The translations under genes were made by a program, and so were the position numbers. A stretch of DNA of 64,000 nt from assembly GCA_010093815.1 (NCBI GenBank), contig ML996567.1; one strand, given 5' to 3'. The DNA is from Pseudovirgaria hyperparasitica (lineage: Eukaryota). Of the stretch, positions 5,359-26,530 are shown piece by piece; the stretch's first letter is position 1; each line of letters starts with the position of its first letter. The notes under the pieces were generated by a model, which saw nothing but the letters and a program-made list of their open reading frames with translations, was not told the origin of the DNA and did no database searches.

Positions 5359-5930
5359 GTGCTTAGGCCGCGTCGCGAGTCGCGAGCTGTAACCCCGGAG
5401 CTAGGTGGGCTTCGCACCGCTGACGTTGTACCAAGGTAGCCTCGGTCTCACTCACATGCACATAGAGCATTCGTTCATGTGCATCATTACTAGAACTGCA
5501 TGTAATACAGCGTAGATGTATTGTACATATAGCCTCTACACCACTAATTACTATTGTACGGCATCAGATTTCACCAGCTCTCTATCACAAGTAGCTTCAG
5601 CATCAAGCCCGAGCTTCCACATCCCCGCGAGTGACCTCATCACCAGATAACCGCCTGATCACTCATATTCATACACTCACGTTCTGCTTCACGGGTAGAG
5701 ACATTCTAGCGCGTGTCCTTCAGCTAGACTAAGAGTCCAAGGTCTTCTTCTGCACGCGCGAGCCTCTCATTACGGAATAAAGTCTGGCAGACGTAATAAC
5801 ATGACGCAGTAGCTTCCACGCATGCATGGCCGCACTTGGCAAGTTTCCTCTGTCTTTCTCATCAACAAGCTGCAACAACTTGTCTGTACGGTGAACTAAT
5901 GCTTCACCAGATTCCCCGTGGACAGATTAC

Positions 5931-7623
5931 ATGTCGAACTCACATCGAAACTCCTACGATGGACCATCGCAAGCGGCGGCGGATCCCAACCCTCCCACCT
6001 ACGCCGCCTTCGCGCCTTCGTCTGGTCCACAGAGTAGCACTGTGTCGCAACAACGTTCGACCATACTAGTACACCAAAAGAGCCCTCTTCTGGTCGCAAC
6101 TCCACCACAAGTCACACGAGTACTCGCATTCTCGCATCCGTTCATCTTGACATTGAGCAAGATCGTAGGGCTGATAACATGGACAACAGGAGATCCCTGG
6201 GAAAGTTTTCTTATGGTAGCCGGCTTCTGGCTACTGACAATATATGGAGATTTGGTTGTAAGATGGGCCGGGCCACTCGTGGTGGTCGTAGGGATCATAA
6301 TCGGAATGTATTCAAGAAGATATTCTCCTCTGTCATCCACAGGCTGGACCGGCGAGAAACAGAAAGGGCACAGAAGAGGCGATCCCGAGACCACCAACAC
6401 GAGGCACCATAAGAGCCTAGAAGAGATCGTAAATACCGTCAAACTGTTCACTTCAAGGTGTAACATACTACTGGACCCTTTTCTACGATTTACAGACTTC
6501 CTATCCACGCAAAGAACAGCAACATCAGCAACCACTAGGCCCGCCCTGACAACAATGTTTATTCGCATATTGCTCATCACTCCTGTCTGGATTCTCATGA
6601 CGTTGCCGCCATTGTATTTGATAACAACGAAAAGAGTAATTCTAAGCGTTGGGACTGTGATTCTGAGTTGGCACTCAAGGCCTGCAAGAGTATCTCGGCT
6701 TGTCTTATGGCGGTCAAAAACAGTTCGAAAGGTATGTGCGACGGTGACGGGCTTGAATTTCGAAAGTCTGGAAAACCAAAACGGCAAGAACAAAACGGAT
6801 AGACCACCCCCACTCCCACCACGGACCAGGAGTGCAAACGCAATCGCGGCATCTCTCGCTGCGAAGAGAAGGTCTGATTCCCCAGGTATCCGCTTCACAT
6901 TCTCCATATTCGAGAACCAGAGAAGATGGCTTGGTATTGGCTGGACTGCATCGATGCTAGCTTATGAGCGGGCTGCGTGGACTGATGAGACTCTATTTCC
7001 AGCACCGTCGAAAGATGCTTTCGATCTACCGGAGGTTGAAGGAGGACATGCAAAATGGAGATGGGTTGATGGCAGTATATGGAGAGTCGATGGTGCTGAA
7101 TATAGTGAATCCGATCCTTCCGGGAGTCAATCCGTTAATGGGTGGCTTTTTTACGATAACAAGGTGAGATATCAATACTGGCTATTGTCCCTGGCCCTAA
7201 CATCCATAATAGTGGCGAGATGGTCGAAGAGGGTTAGATGGCTGGGGCCGTTATACTCGGCGCCGAAAGTGGTATAGAGACGCCGAGCTTGTTGAGATCT
7301 CCCCTTCGATGGACGTCACGCCTTCACCAACGCCTCGACTGAGCTCGTCGCCAAAAGCTGGCTCAGTCGTCGGGTCAGAGTCTGAAGCAACATTGTTGGA
7401 TGACACAGCCAATGAGAGCGACGCTAACAGTCAAGGCACAAGGCGCCGACGTTGGTTCAGAAGAAGCAGCAACTCTGGGAGCATGAAGAGTGGTGACACA
7501 GAAGGAAGTGCGGCGAGCTCTCGTAGGAGTGACGATGATAATGACCTCCACACGCCTGTGCGGCATCAGCAGCGCCAAGATGAATGGAATTTTGGAGATG
7601 AGGCCCGCATGCAGCTAGGATAG
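5931..7623 (+). CDS. Pex23/Pex30-family integral peroxisomal/ER membrane protein with dysferlin domain, 1 intron
   Basis: Hydrophobic reticulon-like segments and FENQRRWLGIGW. After the intron (about 7163-7212) the frame reads DGWGRYTRRRKWYRDAEL, a dysferlin motif. Confidence 0.88.
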
Positions 7624-10600
7624 AAACATGACATTAGCGCGGAGTTACAGGAGCACATCGCGATACCATTAGGATGTTGACACGCGGTCCCAATCTGATA
7701 ATGGTGGCTCGAGGCTTGGTCACATTTGATCAAGATTGGTGTGTGCCATGTCTCATGCGTGAGTACAATGTTGACCTGCCAACATCACGTAATCATAGAT
7801 TTAAGCATGTATGTACCATGTTGTCCACCACCTGCCAACACACCTCATTTCTACTCCCACTTCCATCTCCCTTGCTTGAATATTGACAGTCCTGATACTG
7901 CATCTATCACGCTCTCTACGCCGGTTGGTGGTGTTGGTCTCGCATGGCACGTACTCTTGGTCCATTGTACCAATCGCAAACCTAAGTGGATCCGCAACGG
8001 AACTCAAATACTGTCGCAGATGCATTCATGCGTTCGCAAACATATGACAGATGGCTTTCAGAACTGTCTAACGAATGGATGCAAGTCAGATCCGCAATTT
8101 GCCTGCCAATCCACGATCTCGGTCACCTACCGCGACGACGTTGTCGTGGTTTCACCCACTGAAACGTAGCGAGCACGCCATCGACGGCAGATTCGAACGA
8201 CCGCAGACGTCCTCCTACAAGTAGTTCCTTTGCCTCGGGGTCTATGGCCGCATGATTTCACCACGAAATCGCCATATGGTTCTTTAGTCTTAACAGGATC
8301 TATGGGCCAGCCGATTATTCTTCTACTTGCTGGAAGACGTCAAATGCAAGACCAAACCAGAGCATCTCGTCTCGCGTACCTCGATCGCGCAGAACGGCAC
8401 GTCTCTCGGCGACCTTCCCAGACAGTCTTATCTTGGTCTCGATTAAACGGATCACGCGTTGGTACGACCTTCACCCTGGCTAGTGAGCTCTAGTAGACGA
8501 CTTGCGGCCGACTTCCCTACTTTGAGCGAGCAGGGTTGTGGTTCAGCATGCCTATCTCTGGGATCGCGGATGAAGAAGCTTTGCTTGTTGACTTCAGCTT
8601 CATCGTTGGGCCAGTATTACCCCAAAGCGCACTCTGGTGTATAGCCACTCCTCTGTCGCCGTATATTTCTTTCCTCTACATGTTCGAGCTGTCGGAAATG
8701 CGAGCACTTGCCCATGGTCCTGTGCAGAACTTGCACCCGTAGTCATTGGCGAGCGGACCAACAAGTATTATGTGAAGCATTTGTACCGGCTACGGCTGCC
8801 TTCTGAGTAACCGAGTATCCTAACTTCACAAGCTCAGCTCTGTTATATTTCGAGGATATCAATTGTTCAAGGATCTACCATTCATAGCACTCTAGGATTC
8901 GCAGTAGGACAATTCAACCGCCTCTTGCATACTCAGCCTACGAACACCTCCGGACCCAGGTCCCAAGTCTTGCTGTTAGGGCGGCGCCGGATGATTCAAG
9001 CAAATTGCTCCGTTCCTGGTCCCGAAGCCAATGAAGACAATGACCAATTCGCCTGAATGTCTAGAGTCTTGTGCTTGCAGTCTCGTGACGATATGCCTGT
9101 GTGTCGGGTCAAAGACTGAGCTATCGCTCTGTGGAAAGAGGACGCAACACGAAGTCCGACTATCTGCGAACTATCAGTAACGTCTTGATTCTATCTCCTT
9201 CGATTCACGAGTGGAGCTAAAAGCGGTCTCCTGGGCTTCGTTGAAAGAGTCGACCAAGGTGAAGATGGGACGGCAGACAGGCCTGGATGATCGAGACGTG
9301 CAAATACACACCCGAAAATCATCAAGCCAAGGCCGAGCATGCCAGTTGTAAGTCTCGTAATTACGGACACATGCGATTTAACAATTGCTCAGAAGTGGCA
9401 GCACATGTCAACTGTAGCATGTCTTAGGTATCGACTTCGACTTCATCGTACGACTAAGCACAACCTCCATCAGACGCAACACGAAGCCTGTAACGGTTCT
9501 GTAATTCTCGCTATTTTCACAATAGGGACGCAGTCCGACAATCCCACGTCCCCACTACAGCTCTACCGACACACTTTCAATTACGTTACTTTAGAGGATT
9601 CGATTTACGATATCGGACTTCGCCAATAATTGACATTCAAATCACGAAGCCCTCTCGACACAGCACTAATGGAAACATGGCGAACTTATCAGGCCAATCA
9701 ACAGCCATGTTGTGACGAATAGGAAGTCAACTGCAACAATCGGCCCTTCCAACGTCAGCTGCTATACCAATGTCGCTCATACAAAATGAGTACTCGAACG
9801 CAAGTCTCGATGCTATCTAGCCGTGTGCAATCACTTCCGCTACCATTCATGCACAGTTCCATGAAAGAGGCAGTGATGGACTCTAGACGAAGCACGTAGT
9901 AGCTGTGCGTATGAGATATCTCCTTCGAGCAAAGACGCCGCGCAAATAGCGCATCGAGCATCCCACGTCCCAGGATAATGGTGTATGCATATAATTCTTG
10001 CATACAATCGAAATCCTGAAAGGCTGCAGGCGAGGATCTCCAACGACACGGACATTCCCAATCGATCTTCAGTCGCGTTAGCCGCTTGGATTGGTATCCA
10101 CTTCGACTGACCTCTATGTACGCAAAGGAAAAGGCTCTAAGAGTGGCATCGAAAGGGACGGTCCCACTTAATTTTCCACTTTGCATGATACACAAAGAGG
10201 TCACTTGAAGTAAAGAGCAAAGGGAATCATCAAGAAACCTGGAGCCCCCACACCTGTCACGCATTGCCAAGCTGATTTCACCCTATCATTCGCAAGCACT
10301 AGCGTCGTCGGCGCAAGGCCAGATCGTAAAGCCGAGACACTTTCCGCTGACCAACGCCGCATCCATCAGCTTCACGGCCACCGTTGCCCGACGGCTATAA
10401 CCACATCGGCCCATCTAGTGATCGTGGAATATACACAGCGACTTATATCAAGGAATTCTGTCAGCTCCATCCGGAGCGCCAGGACGATGAAATGACCTTG
10501 TAAAATATACTACTTTACGGAGCTTCGATGCGCCTCGGAGCTGTACCAACGGTCCGGGCTTCTGGACCTCCCTTACGGACCGTCGGCGGGACGTACACGC

Positions 10601-11892
10601 TGTGGTTGCACGCATCTCATCACGGGCCATGATGAACTCCTGATTGGGCTACTGGCCAAGCCGGAGCATCCTTGAGCTGGCTCACATTGGACGCCGCAAA
10701 ATACGCGAGTCATCAGTCCCACGATGCAGGATGACCAGAAGTTGGAGCTCAGAGACCGCTAGCGCTTGATGGAGTATGCCAACAACATATCTGATAGTCG
10801 TCAGGCTTCACACATTCGACCGCACATCACTACCACAATCGGCCTGGGTCGTAGCATCAAACCCTGTTCTGTCGTGGAGTCCTGCATAGGTCTGGGCACA
10901 CGCCGGGCGAGCCACCAAACATCGCAGTGTACGGGTCGCTCTGTCTATACGATATCATTCATGGCAGGTCGATACATATCATGCTCGTTTTCCGATGACC
11001 CGGCGTCCGGGTACCTCCGATACGGTAGGCTGTGATTACCAGTATAGCGCGTCAAATAGGGCACGCAACGCCGGGTGGGTCACACGGCTTGGAGAAGAGT
11101 GAGTAGGCCATCCATTGCCATCTCAGGTGATTTAACATGTAGCCGGAATAAGCGACACGAAGGCCAGGTAGAAATGCCAAAGCCGAAGGGTTCCAAAGCC
11201 GTCCCTGCACAGATGCAACTTAGCGCAGTATTAAGATGCGCTAAGCAGCCTTGATTTACCCACGTCACATCGTACAGGTCAAGTTTGAGGTAAGGTCAGA
11301 GATGCGTTTGCAGCTGCATCCGCATGTATTCGTGTAGTGGTTGGGTAAATGGACCCCACGCCATGTCTCTGATTCCGACGGGTGTTGATCTTACCCGATG
11401 GCAGTTGTCGTCAATGTCATCCACGTGCATGCTCTGCTGCTGGCTGGTCGACGAGCCCCCGGCTCGTTCCCATCCTTGCTAGGCCACTCCATCCCCACGC
11501 CACATACATGCTGCAGTAGATGTACTCTTGGCATTCAGTACTCTGGCAGACATATTGTGTATAGTACCGGTAAGTTTATGGTCCATGTTTGATGTCTAGA
11601 TACACTGCTGTGATCATGCCTGGCCTGGCGAGAGGTAGAGGACAGCAAAGATATGCAGTATGTTGACATGCCGCGACGACCGAGAGCAGCGCCGAGACGC
11701 AGACGTGTCGATGAGATGGATGGGTACAGGAACGGGTGGGTGGCATGGCGCTACGCCGGCCAGACGAGTCTGACCCTGTCCGGGAGGTGTAGGTATGTCT
11801 GATGGTTGGAGGGAGCAGTGTGGGATGGTTGTATTGGACCAAACACACGTATCCTGCATATCTCGCGACGGGGGTGAGCAACCCTTGGGAAA

Positions 11893-11903
11893 GTGTATAT
11901 AAG
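11893..11903 (+). promoter_or_regulatory. TATA-like box of metallothionein gene 1
   Basis: GTGTATATAAG about 130 nt upstream of the ATG at 12030, followed by a C/A-rich leader ending TCAACAATG. Confidence 0.5.
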
Positions 11904-12029
11904 GAGTGCTGGCTCGCGGTCTGTGAAGGTCGATTCTTCATCCGCGATCGATATCTTTGCAATACTACAAGCTTTTACTACTACTACAACCAAATTCTTT
12001 CGATTTTTAAATCAACCAACTCTGTCAAC

Positions 12030-12367
12030 ATGTCTCCCTGGTGAGTCCTCTCTCCCTTCTCGTGACGGGCTGGTCGAGCTGGTAACGTCTTGTGCATTAC
12101 CACTTGACATCATCAGCTCGGCTTCGACAGTATATGTATACCCTTGACAAGGATAACGCTGACCTCAATGCCTATTCACAGTAGCTGCTCCTCTTGCTCT
12201 TGCTCCGGCAACTGCAACTCGTGCGGCTGTGGTGCCTGCAGCGTACGTTCCTCTCTCCCATCACTCATCTCTTTCACCCACTTCACTTCCCTACCCTTCC
12301 CTTCCTCCCACTCCTTCCCAAGAGCCAGCAAAACACCACTACCGTACTGACAACCACCAAGCACTAA
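12030..12367 (+). CDS. Metallothionein, 25 aa, 3 exons: MSPCSCSSCSCSGNCNSCGCGACSH (CAP5-like)
   Basis: Exons 12030-12040, 12182-12242 and 12362-12367. Intron 1 is GTGAGT...GCTGAC...CAG and intron 2 is GTACGT...ACTGAC...AAG. 8 Cys, three CxC pairs. Confidence 0.88.
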
Positions 12368-13136
12368 GCTTTCCCAACAACCGTCTCCCTACTCCCTTTC
12401 CATCGACAACAATAACAACGCATCTCTGAGCACGTTTTGAGCCGCAGCACAATACACATACAAACAACCTCTTTTCTTCTCTACTTGCTTGCTAGCTGGG
12501 AAGGAAGAGCCGGACATGAGCGGGTTCTAAACCACTGTAAGGGTACGACATGATGGGATCGTGAGCGTTGGAGCTTTTGGGTTGTGTTATGTAGGATGGT
12601 GTATATCTGAATATATAACTTGGAGAGAAAATTCTCGAGACTTTGTGTATGTGATGTGAATGTGATGTGATGTTATGAGTGACTGGGCTTTGAAGTCTTA
12701 GGTACGTGGCGGTGGTGGTTTGTACTGGTGGTCAGATCGATAGGGCTGATGTGCCTTATCTGCGTAAGTATGAAACAATGTTCAGGGATTGTGCCTGATG
12801 CTCGAAGTAAGGGGAGTGAGTCTGTGCAGAGGGAGAGGATGGACCACAGTGGAGGAGGATATAGTGAAGCATGTATGGTATGGAACAAAAATGTCGTATT
12901 CAATGGTGTATGTGTCAATTTGGTATCTCAAAGCTCGATTTGTTTGCGAAGAGAGAGGATGATAGCGTTTGCCTTGTACATCATCCCATTAATCCGTCGG
13001 CCTGGAAAGTAACAACCACGAATCCTGATCAACCAAGCAAGCAATAGCAAATTTGAAGGAGTGACATCCTAGCAAAAACTCCGAATCATGCAATCTGTGT
13101 ATCCGAAGGGGGGTTGTTGGTGTGTTGTGGATTGGG

Positions 13137-13261
13137 TTATTTCTGTGTGACTATGTTAGCATTCACTTGGGTCGTGAATTGGGTTGAAAGGAGGGGGTAC
13201 GTACGCCGCAAGTGCAGTTGGCACCGCAGGCGCAGGAGTCTCCGCAAGAGCAGCCGTGCAT
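13137..13261 (-). CDS. Metallothionein, 20 aa, 2 exons: MHGCSCGDSCACGANCTCGK
   Basis: Exon 13261-13205, intron 13204-13143 (GTACGT...GCTAAC...CAG), then AAA TAA. Three CxC pairs, CCAACATG start context, CATATAAG box at about 13397-13404. Confidence 0.88.
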
Positions 13262-14138
13262 GTTGGATGGTATGTTTGTTGTTGAAGGGTTGTGGATTGA
13301 AAGTGTAGCTGGGTCTGAGACGAGGATGCTTTGAGAGGAAGTGTGTAACTGGTGTTGCTGGAGGTAAGTCGAGGGGTATCAGACGAGCGGGGTCTTCTTA
13401 TATGATAAGGCGCGATTATTGCGATAAGAAACACGTGCCGCGCCCCCCAACCGACTAACCGACCAACGCGACCGAGCGAGCCCTTCGAGGCAAGGAGCGG
13501 CCCGTCAAGGACTTCCAGGCGTCGCCGATCGACGACCTGCCAGCCAATCAGCCGTGTTGCGCGCATTGTGCGGTCGGATCTGCGCGTCTTGTGCGTCGCA
13601 AATTTCTCCACTCGTGGGGTTTGGACGTGTTTGCGTGCCTTGAAGAGGGTGTTTGAGTCAGTTGTGCGGTGCTGCGCGACTTGTGCGGACAAGCCACTAC
13701 GACTTATGACGGGGGGGGCGAGCGACTTGTGCGGACGCTGACTTGGTCAGGATGGCTGGCGAGACTCCTCCGTCGCTCGGTGATGCCGTTTATTGGAAGC
13801 ATTGCAACGTGGCTTGGCTCTGCTACGACGATTGAGGCTACATCGTCTATAGTCGGTGTGCAGAGTCGTATTGAGAAGGATGAGAGGAATGAGGGCTTTG
13901 CCACACGATATTAGCAATGAAGTTATGGATCGGCCGTGATCAAAGGACATTAGATATCCTGCTTTGGCCGACAACTTTACGTGTCCTTGATCAGCAGAGT
14001 TCTCCATCTGGATTTCCAATACAACAGAAGCGAGACTCCGCTTAGTCTACACTGCTATGCCTTCGAGGGTTAAAGGAGGTGATAACTCATGGTTCTCCTA
14101 CTGAGCCGCAGACAGTACATCATACGTAGAATCCCCCC

Positions 14139-14403
14139 GACTGTCACAGTAGAACACCGAAAGAGAGATATACATCTGCTAAAGAGGTAATAGCCAGTAT
14201 TAAGTCTTACAAGAGTAGTTTCTTCTATGTTTACTCTCCTTACTATCTATACTTTGATATCTCCTACTATTCATTTAGTTCTTGAGTACCCTTTATATAT
14301 CTCGACTGAGAGAATGGTAGATAAATATATTATATACTACGATTAAGACCAGTATCACATTTAGCTTAACAGTGGTATGCTTTCACCAAACTCTGTAACA
14401 GTC
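14139..14403. mobile_element. Candidate degenerate solo-LTR or MITE relic
   Basis: GACTGTCACAG...CTGTAACAGTC is an 11-bp inverted repeat with 1 mismatch that contains TG...CA ends. It encloses an AT-rich, TpA-rich interior. No target-site duplication is seen. Confidence 0.4.
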
Positions 14404-14605
14404 AAAAGCTCATCAGTCGAGGTCAGCCCTACATACAACGCCAAGGTATGACGACGTTCTTACGCTAGTCCAGTTCAGGCTAGAGGACTTCGAGATTTCA
14501 GTCCCGTCGCGCGCGCGCGTTTCAATCCACACACAAACTTCTTTCCTCCACCTTCACTCGCACCCCAATAAACCTACAAGTGTTGGTCCATTGAACTTCT
14601 TTACA

Positions 14606-16642
14606 ATGGGCGACTCGTATCGCCCTATGTTCCCTCCACCTCCTGCGAAAAGCGATAGCTACCGCCCAACGTCGCAACGACATTCCGACTCCACATCGCA
14701 TCGTGGCCCGGACACGTACAGACCGTCTGGTCGCAATGCATACCGTGACTACAACGTACCTCCGGCTCGTGATGATTTCTCCTTCCAGCCTCCCCCAAAC
14801 GCACCGCGCTTTCCTCCCGCATCTCAGCAAGATATCCCACAACATCCTCCTCGTCGTCGCGCACCTCGTGGTGCTGGCTTCCGTCGGGGCCAGTACTCTG
14901 GTCCTGTAGCGGCCCATGATCGCGCGCTACTCCGAAATAACACCTTGTCTCGCGATGAGCAGTTCCTTGGAGTTGCAGACGGCGCCTTGAAATTCAATGA
15001 TCTGGGCGATTCAACAAGCGAGGATGAGGACAACGGAGCATCTGATTCAGCTGCTGATCAGCCAGGGCCAGACGCAAAGAAACCGCGCAACCAGTTCAAT
15101 CAAGCTGATGGTGACTCTGTCCCGAAGTGGTCGAATCCAGACCCGTACACAGCTTTGCCTCCACCAGACGAGTCGTTGAAGAAGAAGAAGGATGTTGTAC
15201 AACTGATCAGAAAAGCCAAAGTCGACCAGGAAAAGACAGCCGACGGATCTAACGCGGTCAGTCAGAACGTAGACTTCATATCTCTCAATTTCGATGACGG
15301 TGGTAATGATGAAGACGACGGCGAAGCGACCGTGTCGGAACATGAGTCTCCGCCACCTGGAAAGCGACATACTGGATCTTTGAATGACTTTGCCGCAAGA
15401 CCTGAGTTCGCTAGAGCCCCAGTAGATGCGCCGAAGAGACCAAGGGCAGCTTCTCCTGCGCCTCAGAAGTCGAAGAAGAGAAAGCTCCGGGCTAATGAAA
15501 TCGATGGAACCGTTGTCGAGCAGTGGTTACCCATCAAAGGGCAAGATTCCACTCCTTGGTGCACCATAGATCATTCTCGGACCGCGGACGTCGGACTTTG
15601 GCTCCACAAAGAAATCTGTGACTTCTACGAGTACGTCCGGCCGCATGACTTTGAAGCTGAAATCAGAAAGGATCTGGTTGACCGGATAGAGAAGGTGATT
15701 CGCAAAAGACATGGCAGTTGCCGTCTCATGGCTTTCGGATCTTACGCCGCTGGACTGTATTTGCCTACTGCTGACATGGACCTCGTCATGGTGTCCAACT
15801 CTTACTATGACTACGGCCCTCCGGTTTTTGGACGGAGGACTAAGGATCTCCATTCACTCCTACAATATCTGTTGCACCAAGGCATAGCCGAGCCTAACGG
15901 CGAAGTAATTCCTAGTGCAAAAGTGCCGATTATAAAGTTCATTGATCATCGCACTGGTCTCAAAGTGGACATGTCCTTTGAGAACATGAGTGGCGTCACG
16001 GCCAACAAAACATTCTATGACTGGAGTGATAAATACCCTGCGATGCCAAAGATTGTGACACTGATTAAACATTTCCTGCTGATGCGCGGGCTGAACGAAG
16101 TTTTTCTTGGAGGCATCGGTGGCTTCACGGTTACTTGTCTTGTGACTCACCTGATAGCCAGTCTTCCGGCTGTGCAAAGCGGCAACATGGACCCCAGTCA
16201 GCATCTTGGCGAGATTCTGCTCGAGTTCTTCGACCTGTATGGCAACAAATTCAACTACGATGGGGTCATGTTACGAATGAACCCAATCAAGTACGAGAAG
16301 AAGGTAAGAGGCCTACTCATCATGATATCTGGGGTCACGCTGACGTACTTCCGCCAGGGACGATGCGGCCCAGACGGCAAGCTGACCAAGAAGGATCGCC
16401 TCTGTATCGTCGATCCGAATAATGAATCGAACGACATATCTGGTGGCTCAAGCAAGATCCCACTCATCTTCCGTTTGTTCTCGGACGCTCACCGGGACCT
16501 GAAACAGCATATGGCTGCGTTGGAGTCGCAAAACGTGGCAGATCGTAAGCATAGCAGTATACTTGGCTGTATATTCGCGGGAGATTACTCGTCATTTCGT
16601 TGGCAGCGTGATCATCTGCGCCGGATATATGAGAACAGGTAA
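14606..16642 (+). CDS. TRF4: Non-canonical poly(A) polymerase Trf4/5 (Cid14), TRAMP subunit; possible spliced extension to 17799
   Basis: WLHKEICDFYEYVRP, FGSYAAGLYLPTADMD nucleotidyltransferase motif, AKVPIIKF, RGLNEVFLGGIGGF, DPNNESNDISGGS. In-frame 54-nt intron at 16304-16357. Confidence 0.93.
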   Translation: MGDSYRPMFPPPPAKSDSYRPTSQRHSDSTSHRGPDTYRPSGRNAYRDYNVPPARDDFSFQPPPNAPRFPPASQQDIPQHPPRRRAPRGAGFRRGQYSGPVAAHDRALLRNNTLSRDEQFLGVADGALKFNDLGDSTSEDEDNGASDSAADQPGPDAKKPRNQFNQADGDSVPKWSNPDPYTALPPPDESLKKKKDVVQLIRKAKVDQEKTADGSNAVSQNVDFISLNFDDGGNDEDDGEATVSEHESPPPGKRHTGSLNDFAARPEFARAPVDAPKRPRAASPAPQKSKKRKLRANEIDGTVVEQWLPIKGQDSTPWCTIDHSRTADVGLWLHKEICDFYEYVRPHDFEAEIRKDLVDRIEKVIRKRHGSCRLMAFGSYAAGLYLPTADMDLVMVSNSYYDYGPPVFGRRTKDLHSLLQYLLHQGIAEPNGEVIPSAKVPIIKFIDHRTGLKVDMSFENMSGVTANKTFYDWSDKYPAMPKIVTLIKHFLLMRGLNEVFLGGIGGFTVTCLVTHLIASLPAVQSGNMDPSQHLGEILLEFFDLYGNKFNYDGVMLRMNPIKYEKKVRGLLIMISGVTLTYFRQGRCGPDGKLTKKDRLCIVDPNNESNDISGGSSKIPLIFRLFSDAHRDLKQHMAALESQNVADRKHSSILGCIFAGDYSSFRWQRDHLRRIYENR

Positions 16643-20444: not shown

Positions 20445-23400
20445 CTAGTACCGGCGTGTTCGTGGAGGTGACTGGCTTGGGGGAGCACGAGCTTGATATT
20501 GAGAAATCTCGCGAAGTCCATGACCCTCGCTAGATGTCTTCCGGAGCTTCTGTCGCTGCCTGCGAAGTTTCTCGGCATCGTCACCAGAATAGGTTCGCGC
20601 CTGAAGAAAAGGGCCGTCAATCTCCGCAGTGGGGCTGCTCGAAGTGGGTGTCTGGGCAGGGCTGTTTGGGCTGGATCGACCAAAGCCGAATCGTCTGCGT
20701 GGATTCATTGGTGGCAAAGGCGGTACAAAGTCCTGGCCGTTCTTGAGAGAGGCGCCGGGTGGAAGAGCGACGGTCTCTTGCACAGACGTAGAGGACAGTA
20801 GGGTAGGCTCGGAAATGTCCTGCTTGTTGACAGTACGTCGACGGGGCTGCTGGCGGTTAGGGCCAAAAGCTGTGCCTGTGGGTGTGTTGACCGCCGACAG
20901 TGGAGGCGTAGCACTGACAGCATAGCCTGTTTGGATAGGGCGTTGGAGAGACATTGGGCCATTTGTCGGGCCTGGAGATGGACGAGGTGAGGGTGGAAAG
21001 GCTCCGGAAAGACCAATCGCTGGGCTAGGCATAGATGGCACTTGGTGCGAGGTATTGAGATGAGATGGATGCAGCGAGTGCTCGGAATATTGACTTGTCG
21101 CCGTTGACTTGCTGTTGCTGCGGCTTCGATTCGATGACGGGACTGCAAAGGTGGCGTCAGGCGTTGTGCTCGTCGACCCAGTCTCCTCTGCCATTGACCT
21201 GTCCAGCTCGTCGTGATAGGCACGGCTGCGGGATCGCCCAGACGAGATATCAGAGCTGGATCGATTGCGAACTGAGCTGGCCTGGGAAGCGGGAGATCGG
21301 CCAACGGGTGGTCTGCTATGCTCACGACTACTTTCGCGCCCAGCATCAAAATGATACTGGTTGTCATACGTGTTTCCTCCATATCTGGGCCTGGAATGGG
21401 AGGAGCCTCGAGACCTCAGCGAGGCGTGCCGCTCATCCTCGGATCGCCATTGGTCTCGACCGATCTTGTTCACACTTGTGGAAGAGCCACTGTATCCAGG
21501 CATCTTCATCCTGCTGGGCTCATGGCGGAGGCTTGAGGCCATTGAGTCCTTGCTCGACTTTGACCTGAGCATGCCAAACGCCTTCCGTGCATTGGAGACT
21601 GAGTGACTGTCCTCTTCCACTTGGCGCATCCTTTCCGCAATGGCCTTCTGGCGTTGGGCGAGCTCTTGCTGGAATGCATCGCGCTCCTCAACACTAGGTT
21701 GTCGTTTGTGTTTAGTCATCATCTCAAGCTCCCAGGCTGCTCTTCTGGCCTCGGCCTCCTGTTGGATCTCAAACGCGCGAGCTTCCATCTCGTCGAGCGT
21801 GAGTTTACGACCGGTAGTAGTAGTAGAAGTCGACTGTGGTGCCTGCTGGTCGACAGGGCTGACAGAACTCATGCTGTCATTCTCCATGTAATCGCTCCGG
21901 TCAAAGTCTTCGAGGTCCCAGGGGTTAGAGTGGCTGTGAGCCGAATGGGCAGCCGTGTCAGAGACGGAAGGCGCCAGATTCTGACTCGAGTAGCTCTGCT
22001 GGTAGAAGTTGTCTTGCGGGCCGGTTGTGTCTGAATTGTGGTCCGAGTAATTGGATGAGACGTTGCTGACGTTGCGCAGGTGCTGACGAACAAGACCACT
22101 CAAGCATCCACCGTTTGGGCCGAGTGTGGGCGAGTCGAGATCGATGCCTTTGGCGCCATCTAGGTCGAGAGCAGGAGCTGCAGACTGTGGGATTGGGCGT
22201 GTATCCTCGATTCGTTTCCGTGCCGGGACATGGTCAGACTGCTGCTGCTGAGACCGCAAAGCAGGATGCTCATGGATAGGAGGGGCGACTAATTTGGGCG
22301 CGAGCGGGCTTCTCGAGGCATCAGAGTCGACATCTGCTCCATCTGCAGAGGCAGAGAACGATCGTTGTTGACCAGAAGCCAAGGTCTGAGGCTGCGAACT
22401 TTGAGCGCCATTCACCCGCATCTGGTTGGCGGCATTTTGGAAGACACTGAAGGCGGTAGGGGCGGCGGCGGCCTTGGGGGCAGTCTGGGCTTGATCACTC
22501 TCTCTTCGTGACGAATCACCCTCACCGTCATCACCATCGTCACCTCGTCGGGGTGGAGGGGTGTCTCGGCCGCCTTGGTGAAGGTGCATTTGGCGTTGCA
22601 GATATTGTTCCTCACTAAAAGCTTTCGGCTTGTTGAACGCTCCGAGAGCCGTGGCCTTTCCTCGGTCATTGGGATTGAGCGCACTCGTCAGTTCATCTTG
22701 GTCAGCTTGAACGGGACTGATTGGTGGTGTGCTTGAGTGGCCCAAGACAGGACTGGAGGCATTCGAAAAGTTATCTCTCGGTGCAATGGCGTGGTTGTTA
22801 TACGTCACCGGAGGTGGGCTGACCGTTCTCGAGGCAGGGTTGGAGCGCTGATATCGGTCGCTCAAGTTGCTAGCGCTCCGAGCCTGCGACAGGGCAGTTG
22901 GAGAGGATTTCCCGCTTGCGGTACCGCCGTGTTGTTGTCTCTGAACTGTGTTGAGTCTGTTGAGCTGGGAGGTCTGCTGTTCGTGCATGTGCTGATCCAA
23001 GCCCTGTTCGTAGAGTCTTCTGGTCTTGGTGACTGAACGCTCGAGCGGCGCTTGTGACTGACTGGTGGGTGAGACTGCAGTTGCACCCTGTGATGCGATT
23101 GAGGTTGCTGCTGTTGAGGATCGGGAGTTTGATGGTCCTGAATTCGTAGATGAGGATGTTTCACGCCGCTTGTCGTAGCCGGACAAGGCTGCCAGAGTGT
23201 CGTCCCTGAGAGAGGCAGTATTGACCTGATCGCGTAGCTCTTGCTCCCGCCTCTCCTTTTCTTCTTTCCGCAGCCTCTGAAAGGACGACATGCTGACATC
23301 ATCTTCATACAAAGCTCTTCCTCGGTTATTGCCGGTGCCAGAAATCTTGTACACTTTTTGACGACCACCAAACAGGATATTGCCTTCGCCCGGGCGTGCT

Positions 23401-23846
23401 CGACTCATGACACTGCCACCATCCATATCATCAGAGGTAGTGCGAAGAGTCTCCATTGAGGTCTGTCTCTCCATCAAGAATGGAGGTTTGATAGAGCCAT
23501 TGATGGACATCTCATCAATGTCGGCGAGGGTTGATGATTTGAAGCCAAAGTCGTAAAGGCGTGACTGTCTGTTGGAGGATAGAACACTGTCGTCGCTAGC
23601 CTTGCCCAGCTTCGACTTTGGATCGTCTTGCTCTCTTAGCATGCTGAAGCGCGCCGACAGGTTTGGCATGATCAAGCTGGTACGAAAGTCATCGGAGCTC
23701 GGTAGGGCAGCAGCCAGATCAAGCTCTGGTTTTTGCTCGACCTGACCTTTCTTACCCTTTTTTGGTTTCTTCGTTCCAAACGAGGCGGAAGAGTTGCCCA
23801 GGTCTTCTGTGGCGTCCTTTCTGGACTTTGTGAAGAATCTGTTCAT
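20445..23846 (-). CDS. Large Ser/Arg/Pro-rich protein of unknown function (about 1133 aa)
   Basis: Long uninterrupted ORF. Likely start MNRFFTK at 23846. Ordered-looking N-terminal block DDFRTSLIMPNLSARFSMLREQDDP, coiled-coil segments, and late motifs VNKQDISEPTL and PPLPPMNPRRR. Confidence 0.85.
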   Translation of the reverse strand: MNRFFTKSRKDATEDLGNSSASFGTKKPKKGKKGQVEQKPELDLAAALPSSDDFRTSLIMPNLSARFSMLREQDDPKSKLGKASDDSVLSSNRQSRLYDFGFKSSTLADIDEMSINGSIKPPFLMERQTSMETLRTTSDDMDGGSVMSRARPGEGNILFGGRQKVYKISGTGNNRGRALYEDDVSMSSFQRLRKEEKERREQELRDQVNTASLRDDTLAALSGYDKRRETSSSTNSGPSNSRSSTAATSIASQGATAVSPTSQSQAPLERSVTKTRRLYEQGLDQHMHEQQTSQLNRLNTVQRQQHGGTASGKSSPTALSQARSASNLSDRYQRSNPASRTVSPPPVTYNNHAIAPRDNFSNASSPVLGHSSTPPISPVQADQDELTSALNPNDRGKATALGAFNKPKAFSEEQYLQRQMHLHQGGRDTPPPRRGDDGDDGEGDSSRRESDQAQTAPKAAAAPTAFSVFQNAANQMRVNGAQSSQPQTLASGQQRSFSASADGADVDSDASRSPLAPKLVAPPIHEHPALRSQQQQSDHVPARKRIEDTRPIPQSAAPALDLDGAKGIDLDSPTLGPNGGCLSGLVRQHLRNVSNVSSNYSDHNSDTTGPQDNFYQQSYSSQNLAPSVSDTAAHSAHSHSNPWDLEDFDRSDYMENDSMSSVSPVDQQAPQSTSTTTTGRKLTLDEMEARAFEIQQEAEARRAAWELEMMTKHKRQPSVEERDAFQQELAQRQKAIAERMRQVEEDSHSVSNARKAFGMLRSKSSKDSMASSLRHEPSRMKMPGYSGSSTSVNKIGRDQWRSEDERHASLRSRGSSHSRPRYGGNTYDNQYHFDAGRESSREHSRPPVGRSPASQASSVRNRSSSDISSGRSRSRAYHDELDRSMAEETGSTSTTPDATFAVPSSNRSRSNSKSTATSQYSEHSLHPSHLNTSHQVPSMPSPAIGLSGAFPPSPRPSPGPTNGPMSLQRPIQTGYAVSATPPLSAVNTPTGTAFGPNRQQPRRRTVNKQDISEPTLLSSTSVQETVALPPGASLKNGQDFVPPLPPMNPRRRFGFGRSSPNSPAQTPTSSSPTAEIDGPFLQARTYSGDDAEKLRRQRQKLRKTSSEGHGLREISQYQARAPPSQSPPRTRRY

Positions 23847-23973
23847 TGTGGCTTTGCAAAGGTTAGCTATGATGGAACGTTTGCGGACAAGACACTTGGG
23901 GTGGTTGGAGAGAGAGATGGGCGAATCGCCAGTAGTAGTATGCTGGACCATTGAAGGGAAGCTGTCTTACAAG

Positions 23974-23975
<2 letters not shown>

Positions 23976-24020
<45 letters not shown>

Positions 24021-26530
24021 AGGTGTTGCAATGCGTGCAATTACGACACTAACGTTTGTCCGGGAAGGTCTACTTCTGTGGATAAGTCTGTTGCACGCGC
24101 AGCTTGAGATAACCGGCGGCAACGACTTTCACGGTTTGATCCGAGTATATTCGACGTGCTTACAGTGAGGATTCAATTGTCTTCGCTTTCGAGCGTGTCC
24201 ACGCGGGTGAGCAGTCGTGGCTGAGCAGCTAGGCGACTGGCGTGGATGATACGCGATCGTGATGGTGTATCTTTTAGGTCTAGGCCCAGCACAACTGTCT
24301 CCATACACACCAAGCTGCTGTGAATTGGTTTGAGAGGATGGTATCAAAGTAGCAGGATCGGCTGAATGAATGCGGACGGCGGGAGTAATGCTATATCGAG
24401 CAGAGAATGGTACGGTTGAGGGTAATGTTCCGAGGCGGAGGAATTGATAGGTTTCGGAGGTCAAGGCGGTGCGAGCAAGGAGCGTCAGTTGAATCGAGAT
24501 GGAGTATGGAGCAGGGGTGTGGTAAAAGAGTGTTTCTAGAGAGTGGACAGATACAGAAGCGAAGGACGACGGTAAAGAGTAGTGAGCGAGGAAGGAGCAA
24601 AGAAGACGTTGCCAGCGTCTTGAGCAAAAAGGACTGTGAGGATGGTTAGAAAAAGCTGTCAGAGGGGGAAACAGGACGAGAGCGCACGAGGAAAAGAAAG
24701 GTGTGTGAGAGAGAAGCCGCCGGGCAGTCTCCCGCTCTGGTTCCTGAGTCTGAAGGGGGACAAGGCTAGTTTTGGGGGGGGGAGGACCATGTACGTACCT
24801 TGCAGCGTAAGGGGGGCAAGATGGAAAAAAGACGAGAGCACAAAGCTCGACTGTGACTGGACCAGCACGCCCGTTTTCTCCACGCTGAGGAGAGATGACA
24901 AGGGGGGAGGGGAGGGGGAAGGGGTTTGCAGAAAAGCAGCACAGCAGAAAAGTAGGCTCTTAGCGTCGACGATCCCGGCCAATTGACAAAGGTCCGCTGG
25001 TCGATGGTTCGACGAGCTGATGGTGTAGACGGCCCGGCGACGGCAGCAATCGTGGCGCGCTCAGTTCCGGACTTGGGGGAGACTTGGGTGTGTGGGCCTG
25101 GCTGCTGGCAAGGTTGTGTGAAGAAAGTGGGCAGAGGAGGCGAAGGGATTGGAGCAAGTGGTGGTGGTGGTCAAGGCAGGATTAACGTTTGTGTCGGTGT
25201 TGAGGAAGCGAGGTATGGGGGGAGTCAAGGAGGGTGGTGGTAGTAGGCAGGGCAGCAGCCCAACGAAAGACGTGGAAGAAACGGAATTGTTTCAGTGGAG
25301 ATGGGCGAGAAGCGGAGGCTCGAAATGAGAAGTGTGATGATGAAGAGGATGGATGGATGGATGGATGGATGGCGAAACGTAGTGTATGGATGGACGGATG
25401 GTGATAGGTGAGTGGTGGTGGTGGTGGTGGTGGTATGGTAGTAGGTTGGTCAGCGGGAATGGAGGCCTGCCCGTGAAGCCTCGTACTCGCACATTCGCAC
25501 ACTCGCACACTCGCACAAACACCACCACACTGTCCACACACATTGTCAGTATGCACCTTTGCAGTCCTAGTGGCTGCACAACACAACACGCTCTGGTGGT
25601 GAGTTGGTGGCAGCTGTACGGCATCAATGGTTGGGCTGACTGTTGATATGTCTGTCTCTTGTGGCAAGGTAGATAATTGGTGTAGCTAATGAACGAGGAT
25701 ATCAATTTAGTAGACTCGTGGCTGGACACGGATACGGGATGAAGAAGGGCATGCTCTCTCTCATGCACAGCACAGCACCTCCAATGCAGTGATGCACAGC
25801 TTCGAACGATCGCAAGCTTCCTCGATCGATTCGAGAGAGAGAGAGAGAGAGAGAGATTTGACTTGGTTGACATGGTGCTTGTCAGTGTCGTTGTCAGCAG
25901 GGGGGAGCAGCAACTTTGGGACACCTGGGGCCACTTTGGGGCAGTTGGGGCCACTTTGGGGCAGTTGGGGCCACTCTTGGTCCACTAGAATTCGGCTGTT
26001 CCTGGCTACCCAAGCCGCCACCACCCACCGCCCACCGCCCACCAAGCCCTCTACCGGGACACACACACATACATAACACATGTGCAAAGGCCCCCACTTG
26101 CCGGGGACAACTCTTCTTCTGAAACACGAGCCAGGTATTAGCCAGTGTCGACTGACAAGAGCAATTAAAAGTGTCAGAAGCTGCTGGACCGTCAATTCGA
26201 GTATTATTATCTTCAATCTCACGCAGCTATGAAAAAGGTTCTCTCTCAGCTGGTACTGCAATACCTACCTGTAATTATCTGTCTTGTACCTGCACCTGTA
26301 CCTGTACCTGTACCTGTACCTGTCCTGTGTCCCTGGTGCTGTATCGGTCGGTGCACAGGCAGAAAGCAGCAGTCCCTCCAAGCGGTGTTTGCATCTGTAC
26401 CTTGTACCTGCACCTGCACCTGTACCTGCGCGCGCACCCAAGGCCAACCGATGCTCCGGTGCATGGGTGGGTAGATGGTTGGATGGATGAATAGATGAAC
26501 GAATCGATGATAGCTGGATGCATGATGCAT
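23976..26530. repeat. Simple-repeat-rich intergenic region: (TG)n 23976-24016, (GGAT)n, (GGT)n, (GA)n about 25832-25856, 20-bp tandem 25927-25974, (TGTACC)n about 26285-26428
   Basis: Seen directly in the sequence. Confidence 0.85.

Follow-up and report, generated by a model that had tools for sequence, protein, structure and literature searches.

The window, i.e., the whole 64-kb stretch of DNA that was analysed, harbors two small Cys-rich genes, designated gene 1 and gene 2, which lie in a region of about 6 kb without large frames. Its host, Pseudovirgaria hyperparasitica, is a Dothideomycete and is described as a mycoparasite in the literature. On one side, the pair is flanked by a gene for a Pex24p-type peroxin and on the other side by a gene for a Cid1/TRF4-type poly(A) polymerase, the 678-aa frame of the latter showing 97% identity to a P. 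hyperparasitica protein at NCBI (next match 46%). Further along, a stop-free frame of 1173 codons was observed at 20448-23966 on the - strand, which revealed no Pfam family at E 0.001. The features of the region are as follows:

5895-7274 (strand not given): Pex24p-type peroxin (E 6e-90)
11896-11902 (+ strand): TATATAA box of gene 1, found by motif scan; the 5'-most end of a transcript contig (11948) follows 46 nt downstream
11948-12029 (+ strand): leader of gene 1, at least 82 nt, G-poor and C/A-rich, without upstream ATG and with CAAC before the ATG; contig 1 of run X1 begins at 11948
12030-12040 (+ strand): coding piece 1 of gene 1, Met-Ser-Pro and bases 1 and 2 of a Cys codon
12041-12181 (+ strand): intron 1 of gene 1, 141 nt, GTGAGT..GCTGAC (branch-like)..CAG, phase 2, skipped in contigs of X1 (1), X2 (2), and X3 (2)
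12182-12242 (+ strand): coding piece 2 of gene 1, last base of the split Cys codon and seven whole Cys codons (translation P0002)
12243-12361 (+ strand): intron 2 of gene 1, 119 nt, GTACGT..TACTGAC..AAG, phase 0 and immediately preceding the last codon; X1 (1), X2 (1), and X3 (4) have contigs that skip it
12362-12581 (+ strand): last exon of gene 1, CAC TAA at 12362-12367 and a 3' untranslated region that reaches at least 12581 (X1 contig 1)
13142-13002 (- strand): last exon of gene 2, AAA TAA at 13142-13137 and a 3' untranslated region that reaches at least 13002 (X1 contig 2)
13204-13143 (- strand): intron of gene 2, 62 nt, GTACGT..GCTAAC..CAG, phase 0 and immediately preceding the last codon; X1, X2, and X3 have one contig each that skips it
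13261-13205 (- strand): coding piece 1 of gene 2, 19 codons with six Cys as three CxC (translation P0001)
13343-13262 (- strand): leader of gene 2, at least 82 nt, G-poor and C/A-rich, without upstream ATG and with CAAC before the ATG
about 13396-13405 (- strand): TATA-like CATATAAG of gene 2, read from the sequence, about 55 nt upstream of 13343, without a match in a stricter TATAWAW scan
13566-13734 (+ strand): five same-orientation copies of TTGTGCGK in 170 nt, 300-470 nt upstream of the gene 2 ATG, a candidate regulatory array
14399-16639 (strand not given): Cid1/TRF4-type poly(A) polymerase

Reading and joining of the coding pieces by their coordinates gave the same gene models as an earlier reading made from the sequence only. 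Thus, gene 1 starts with the ATG at 12030 on the + strand and is composed of three coding pieces encoding 25 aa with eight Cys, while gene 2 starts with the ATG at 13261 on the - strand and is composed of two coding pieces encoding 20 aa with six Cys. Likewise, the genes form the convergent pair that had been described as about 770 bp apart, their stop codons being separated by 769 nt, and each has a promoter of its own with a TATATAA or TATA-like box and a C/A-rich leader. The proposed one-codon last exons (His-stop and Lys-stop) hold for the coding part, but the exons themselves continue as 3' untranslated regions. Both genes have in common a phase-0 intron that starts with GC|GTACGT directly before the last codon.

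For transcript evidence, contigs of three public runs (X1, X2, and X3, from two studies) were mapped onto positions 11850-13450. All three runs revealed a skip of 141 nt (12040 to 12182), a skip of 119 nt (12242 to 12362), and a skip of 62 nt (13142 to 13205), and the skipped segments carry GT..AG ends, that of gene 2 reading CT..AC on the + strand and hence GT..AG on the - strand. The three introns are therefore cut at exactly the bases that the sequence-only reading had predicted. Bins within the introns displayed zero depth in X1, X2, and X3, and no contig covering an intron was found in them, while the transcripts proved to be abundant, with word depths in the exon bins of up to 2e5 (X2) and 1.5e5 (X3). 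The records do not give the runs as RNA; since three GT..AG introns present in the genome assembly are removed exactly, the runs are most simply read as cDNA. In X2, two variant joints with extra letters occurred at low depths (88 and 38), which we took for error variants. According to contigs of the smallest run (X1), the transcripts extend over at least 11948-12581 (gene 1) and 13343-13002 (gene 2). In both spliced mRNAs, the Cys-rich frame opens at the first ATG (position 83) after a leader ending in the common CAACATG, and with no other frame exceeding 12 codons it is the only one of any size. Contigs of X2 and X3 additionally span the whole spacer 12502-13142, and upstream of gene 2 a contig of 1249 nt in X2 and one of 1129 nt, at lower depth, in X3 extend past 13450, which suggests longer isoforms, read-through, or another transcript.

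As a control for composition, stretches of 20 codons with at least six Cys were counted, resulting in 16 in the window, while 30 mononucleotide shuffles contained 0.47 on average. This control is weak, because most of the other 14 stretches lie on microsatellites or simple repeats or belong to frames lacking the make-up of CxC among small residues, so that the reality of both genes is decided by the transcripts and not by composition. Microsatellites of the (TG)n/(CA)n type at 23938-24074 and 26246-26468 yield long Cys-Val or Cys-Thr frames and are chiefly responsible for false 'Cys-rich ORFs' in the window.

Metallothioneins are small proteins of high Cys content, the Cys being arranged in CxC or CxxC motifs, and aromatic residues are absent. 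Both peptides have this make-up: Cys accounts for 8 of 25 residues (32%) in gene 1 and for 6 of 20 (30%) in gene 2, and each peptide contains three CxC motifs and one His, but no F, W, or Y. The remaining residues of both are S, G, N, A, D, T, P, H, K, or M. Not counting the initiator Met, the Cys pattern of gene 1 is X2-[CXC]-X2-[CXC]-X3-C-X2-[CXC]-X2-C-X2, and that of gene 2 is X2-[CXC]-X3-[CXC]-X3-[CXC]-X2. Based on composition, CxC pattern, and likeness to metallothionein domains, the earlier assignment to the metallothioneins thus stands for the class, while metal binding is predicted from the sequence.

Assignment to a described family was less straightforward. Neither peptide fits the pattern of Family 8 (fungi-I), gene 1 having eight Cys and a first spacer of two residues and gene 2 having six Cys, a first spacer of three residues, and no seventh Cys. 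In the Pfam search, the exon of gene 2 matched Metallothio_2 (PF01439, profile positions 3-17) with 11.5 bits (E 0.61), which is below the gathering cut-off of 23 bits, and exon 2 of gene 1 gave no match; scores below threshold are to be expected here, because only 19-20 residues are scored against a profile of 81 positions. A sequence search against solved structures returned no metallothionein, gene 2 giving nothing beyond chance matches and gene 1 no match at all, and the best score in a search of the ESM Atlas was an uninformative 0.75.

The 19-codon exon of gene 2 shares 12 of 19 residues (pairwise E 1e-8) with the N-terminal Cys domain in L123, a plant-type metallothionein of 80 aa, which itself matches Pfam Metallothio_2 at 2e-22. 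L123 (584 nt) and L140 (564 nt) are whole scaffolds with intronless 80-aa frames for plant type-1 metallothioneins in an assembly titled Companilactobacillus huachuanensis and are probably contamination of this assembly by plant cDNA. When the 32-aa unspliced frame of gene 2 was used as a query against a library of representative proteins, four matches were obtained, including the plant-type metallothionein P0005; the long repeat protein P0004 was matched by chance via the non-coding tail of the query, and P0003 (2655 aa) and P0006 (1305 aa), with long matches in several stretches, were also taken for chance. Scanning of metagenomes with a loose pattern yielded at least 114 loci, and among the matches listed 113 were (TG)n, (GC)n, or similar repeats or were otherwise unrelated. 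The only one of them that is likely, from its sequence, to be a relative is the metagenome contig L098, with an intronless gene of 20 codons that has a TATA box and the Cys register of gene 2 and is identical to it in 11 of 20 residues.

A stricter pattern applied to contigs of prokaryote genomes resulted in 34 loci. About 25 of these were simple repeats of the TGC/GGN type, four were Cys-Ile-Gly repeat frames of Lachnospiraceae, and one each was a 170-aa Cys-rich frame of Fibrobacter and a Gly/Cys-rich frame of Prevotella (L129, at least 218 aa), all of which were rejected. Two further loci were the plant metallothionein scaffolds of the Companilactobacillus assembly. The last one (L130) carries the register of gene 2 inside a 175-aa bacterial Cys-rich protein, with 13 of 19 residues identical, and since the register also occurs there, likeness in the motif can arise without common descent. 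L130 is a rumen metagenome-assembled contig, in which (168-695, + strand) two Cys-rich stretches flank a hydrophobic segment, and the last 46 residues alone reach 24.8 bits with Metallothio_2 (cut-off 23). In the protein collection, no match was found for the 60-aa unspliced frame of gene 1 among proteins of 30-32 aa or for the 52-aa read-through of gene 2 among proteins of 28-91 aa; these blanks say nothing on novelty, because the collection begins at about 30 aa and metallothioneins of 20-27 aa cannot appear in it.

Among the closest known systems, gene 1 resembles the small metallothionein of Heliscus lugdunensis. Presumably, the two match in Cys spacing, in the Ser-Pro start, and in the Ser-His end. 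According to a 2026 paper, the Heliscus metallothionein is a small fungal peptide with eight Cys, a type of eight Cys in about 24 aa to which gene 1 conforms with eight Cys in 25 aa, and a title in a reference list names cadmium detoxification as its main role. Heliscus is a Sordariomycete, whereas the host of gene 1 is a Dothideomycete. Gene 2, on the other hand, resembles the N-terminal Cys domain of plant type-1 metallothioneins (PF01439), sharing the register M-x-G-CxC-G-x2-CxC-G-x2-CxC-G followed by Lys. While the plant proteins, of about 80 aa, have a second Cys domain behind a spacer, gene 2 ends after the first domain. The likeness in the register may be due to shared descent or to convergence.

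MMT1 of Magnaporthe oryzae contains six Cys. By its description, it is a metallothionein as tiny as the peptides of gene 1 and gene 2; it is reported to be a peptide of 23 aa with zinc affinity that is needed for pathogenicity and acts as an antioxidant, and a preprint states that gene finders with default length settings miss it and that its annotation requires a reduction of the minimum length of proteins from 50 to 20 aa. It did not group with any other protein in a clustering of 36 genomes. MMT1 is tied to appressorial infection of plants, whereas the host of our pair appears to be mycoparasitic. The appressorium context invoked by the sequence-only reading therefore probably does not apply, the host being a Dothideomycete described as a mycoparasite and not a Sordariomycete plant pathogen.

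The Cu-metallothioneins of Neurospora crassa and Agaricus bisporus (family 8 of Binz and Kagi) are similar to our peptides in that they are very short (26 aa), carry CxC among small residues, lack aromatics, and stem from filamentous fungi. Their published pattern is X2-[CXC]-X5-[CXC]-X3-[CXC]-X2-C-X3, so that they differ in spacing and in having seven Cys instead of eight (gene 1) or six (gene 2); the seven Cys of the Neurospora peptide are reported to hold six Cu(I). Close pairs of metallothionein genes in a fungal genome are described for Yarrowia lipolytica (MT1/MT2 and MT3/MT4). Unlike gene 1 and gene 2, the Yarrowia proteins belong to the fungal-IV family, which has a CCC motif and a long N-terminus lacking Cys, and the members of a pair are close homologues that are all induced by copper, whereas gene 1 and gene 2 are convergent and differ in Cys number and promoter. 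For Podospora, the promoter of PaMt1 is reported to drive strong expression. Published primers for mt1, called the 'single' metallothionein gene of Fusarium oxysporum, lie at +150 and +396, which makes this gene much larger than gene 1 and gene 2. For CAP3/CAP5 of Colletotrichum, a full-text literature search returned no paper on fungal CAP genes by title.

The two genes differ in their promoters. Besides the TTGTGCGK array, the promoter of gene 2 contains an AP-1-type TGAGTCA at 13654 and a CCAAT at 13544, none of which was found by motif scan in the promoter of gene 1. These unlike promoters suggest that the genes are regulated differently. In the whole 64-kb window, TTGTGCGK is present in nine copies compared to 4.2 expected; we know of no named factor for it. 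Its copies sit inside longer repeats of the form TGCGCG-n2-3-TTGTGCGG. Two GATAAG motifs (13404-13409 and 13423-13428), 19 nt apart and adjoining the TATA-like box of gene 2, are possible sites for a GATA factor.

The relation of the two genes to each other was assessed by aligning their peptides, whereby the first four Cys align in register. The alignment score of 49 (33.3 +/- 8.0 in shuffles) was reached by 77 of 2000 composition-preserving shuffles and thus indicates a weak likeness. A better hint is the shared intron position together with the 5' splice context, on the basis of which the genes may be old inverted duplicates. Going further, one could regard them as a functional unit, in which inverted duplicates that have retained the phase-0 intron and whose convergent transcripts interfere switch between two metal or redox buffers and the TTGTGCGK array acts as a new stress- or metal-responsive enhancer. 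If so, the convergent transcripts would meet or overlap in the 769-nt spacer, which is bridged by contigs of two runs, and gene 2, with its 20 codons, would rank with the shortest known metallothionein genes and represent the N-domain of the plant type-1 proteins in free-standing form. We regard this as improbable. The 'two-gene metal or redox module' of the sequence-only reading is a suggestion drawn from the adjacency of gene 1 and gene 2. Close relatives in which the synteny of the pair could be followed are scarce.

Altogether, the locus very probably holds two real, separately promoted, and convergently transcribed protein-coding genes, whose spliced mRNAs give rise to metallothionein-class peptides of 25 residues with eight Cys and of 20 residues with six Cys. 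Judging from small fungal and plant metallothioneins, both peptides would fold only around metal ions, with the CxC thiolates holding small clusters of Cu(I), Zn(II), or Cd(II), and they may serve to buffer metals or to detoxify them, besides acting as sacrificial thiol antioxidants. By the same analogy, the 6-Cys peptide of gene 2 might, like MMT1 and the plant N-domain, bind a few Zn or Cu ions and act as an antioxidant, and the 8-Cys peptide of gene 1 might, like the Heliscus type, contribute to the detoxification of Cd or Cu.

It is also conceivable, though rather unlikely, that the peptides are made but serve mainly as thiol antioxidants or cell-wall factors, metal binding being incidental. 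Such a role would be in line with Mmt1, which a review places in the walls of infection structures and describes as an antioxidant of very low redox potential, and with the AP-1-type TGAGTCA at 13654 in the promoter of gene 2. It would also agree with the finding that neither promoter revealed a match to the consensus of Cu-fist, Mac1, or Zap1; yet these are yeast-type motifs, the absence of which says little for a Dothideomycete, and a consensus scan cannot show regulation. Moreover, CxC peptides of such make-up are reported to bind metals wherever they were tested. Finally, this explanation overlaps with that of two metallothionein genes, since both roles can coexist.

The remaining alternatives concern the coding capacity itself. 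If the transcripts were abundant non-coding RNAs, the Cys-rich frames would be chance products of TGC-rich sequence, as might be thought from the simple repeats underlying other Cys-rich frames in the window and from the pattern scans, which gave mostly microsatellites. Against this, the coding DNA of the two genes is not a simple repeat, both frames open at the first AUG in the context CAACATG behind leaders without upstream ATG, splicing in both genes puts the stop directly after one further codon, the register of the peptide recurs in L098 and in plant metallothioneins, and no Rfam family matched in 8000-14600, so that we consider this very unlikely. Even less can be said for the unspliced frames of 60 aa (12168-12350) and 32 aa (13261-13163) as the true products, with the introns being artefacts. 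Both are open in the genomic sequence, but in X1, X2, and X3 alike the contigs pass directly from exon to exon and leave the introns uncovered, which contradicts this possibility; in addition, the 60-aa frame begins within intron 1, and a search of the protein collection found no relative of either unspliced reading. Hence, it is hardly credible that the introns are artefacts, and two spliced metallothionein-class genes remain the preferred explanation.

With respect to novelty, the literature already covers small metallothioneins of fungi, the fact that gene finders overlook them, and the occurrence of metallothionein genes in pairs (Yarrowia). New are the verification of two members in a lineage not studied so far, the length of only 20 residues, the position of an intron ahead of the last codon in both genes, and the fact that genes of two different Cys types are paired convergently. 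A full-text literature search, which did not extend to most subscription journals or to about 1.7 million articles of PubMed Central, found neither exon peptide printed and no link between Pseudovirgaria and metallothioneins. How metallothioneins are understood to work is not changed by gene 1 and gene 2.

In many fungi, tiny metallothioneins are among the most abundant transcripts and are nevertheless dropped by automatic annotation, and because of this, inventories such as 'single metallothionein in this fungus' can be wrong. It is plausible that gene finders also miss the two genes described here, and fungal metallothionein inventories built on annotated proteins may miss further genes of 20-25 codons. 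For a little-studied mycoparasite lineage, the analysis provides two exact gene models verified by transcripts and documents an unusual structure common to both, with an intron directly before the last codon. The pair is therefore useful as a template for searches in fungal genomes and as a minimal model peptide, the 20 residues of gene 2 repeating the N-terminal domain of plant type-1 metallothioneins.
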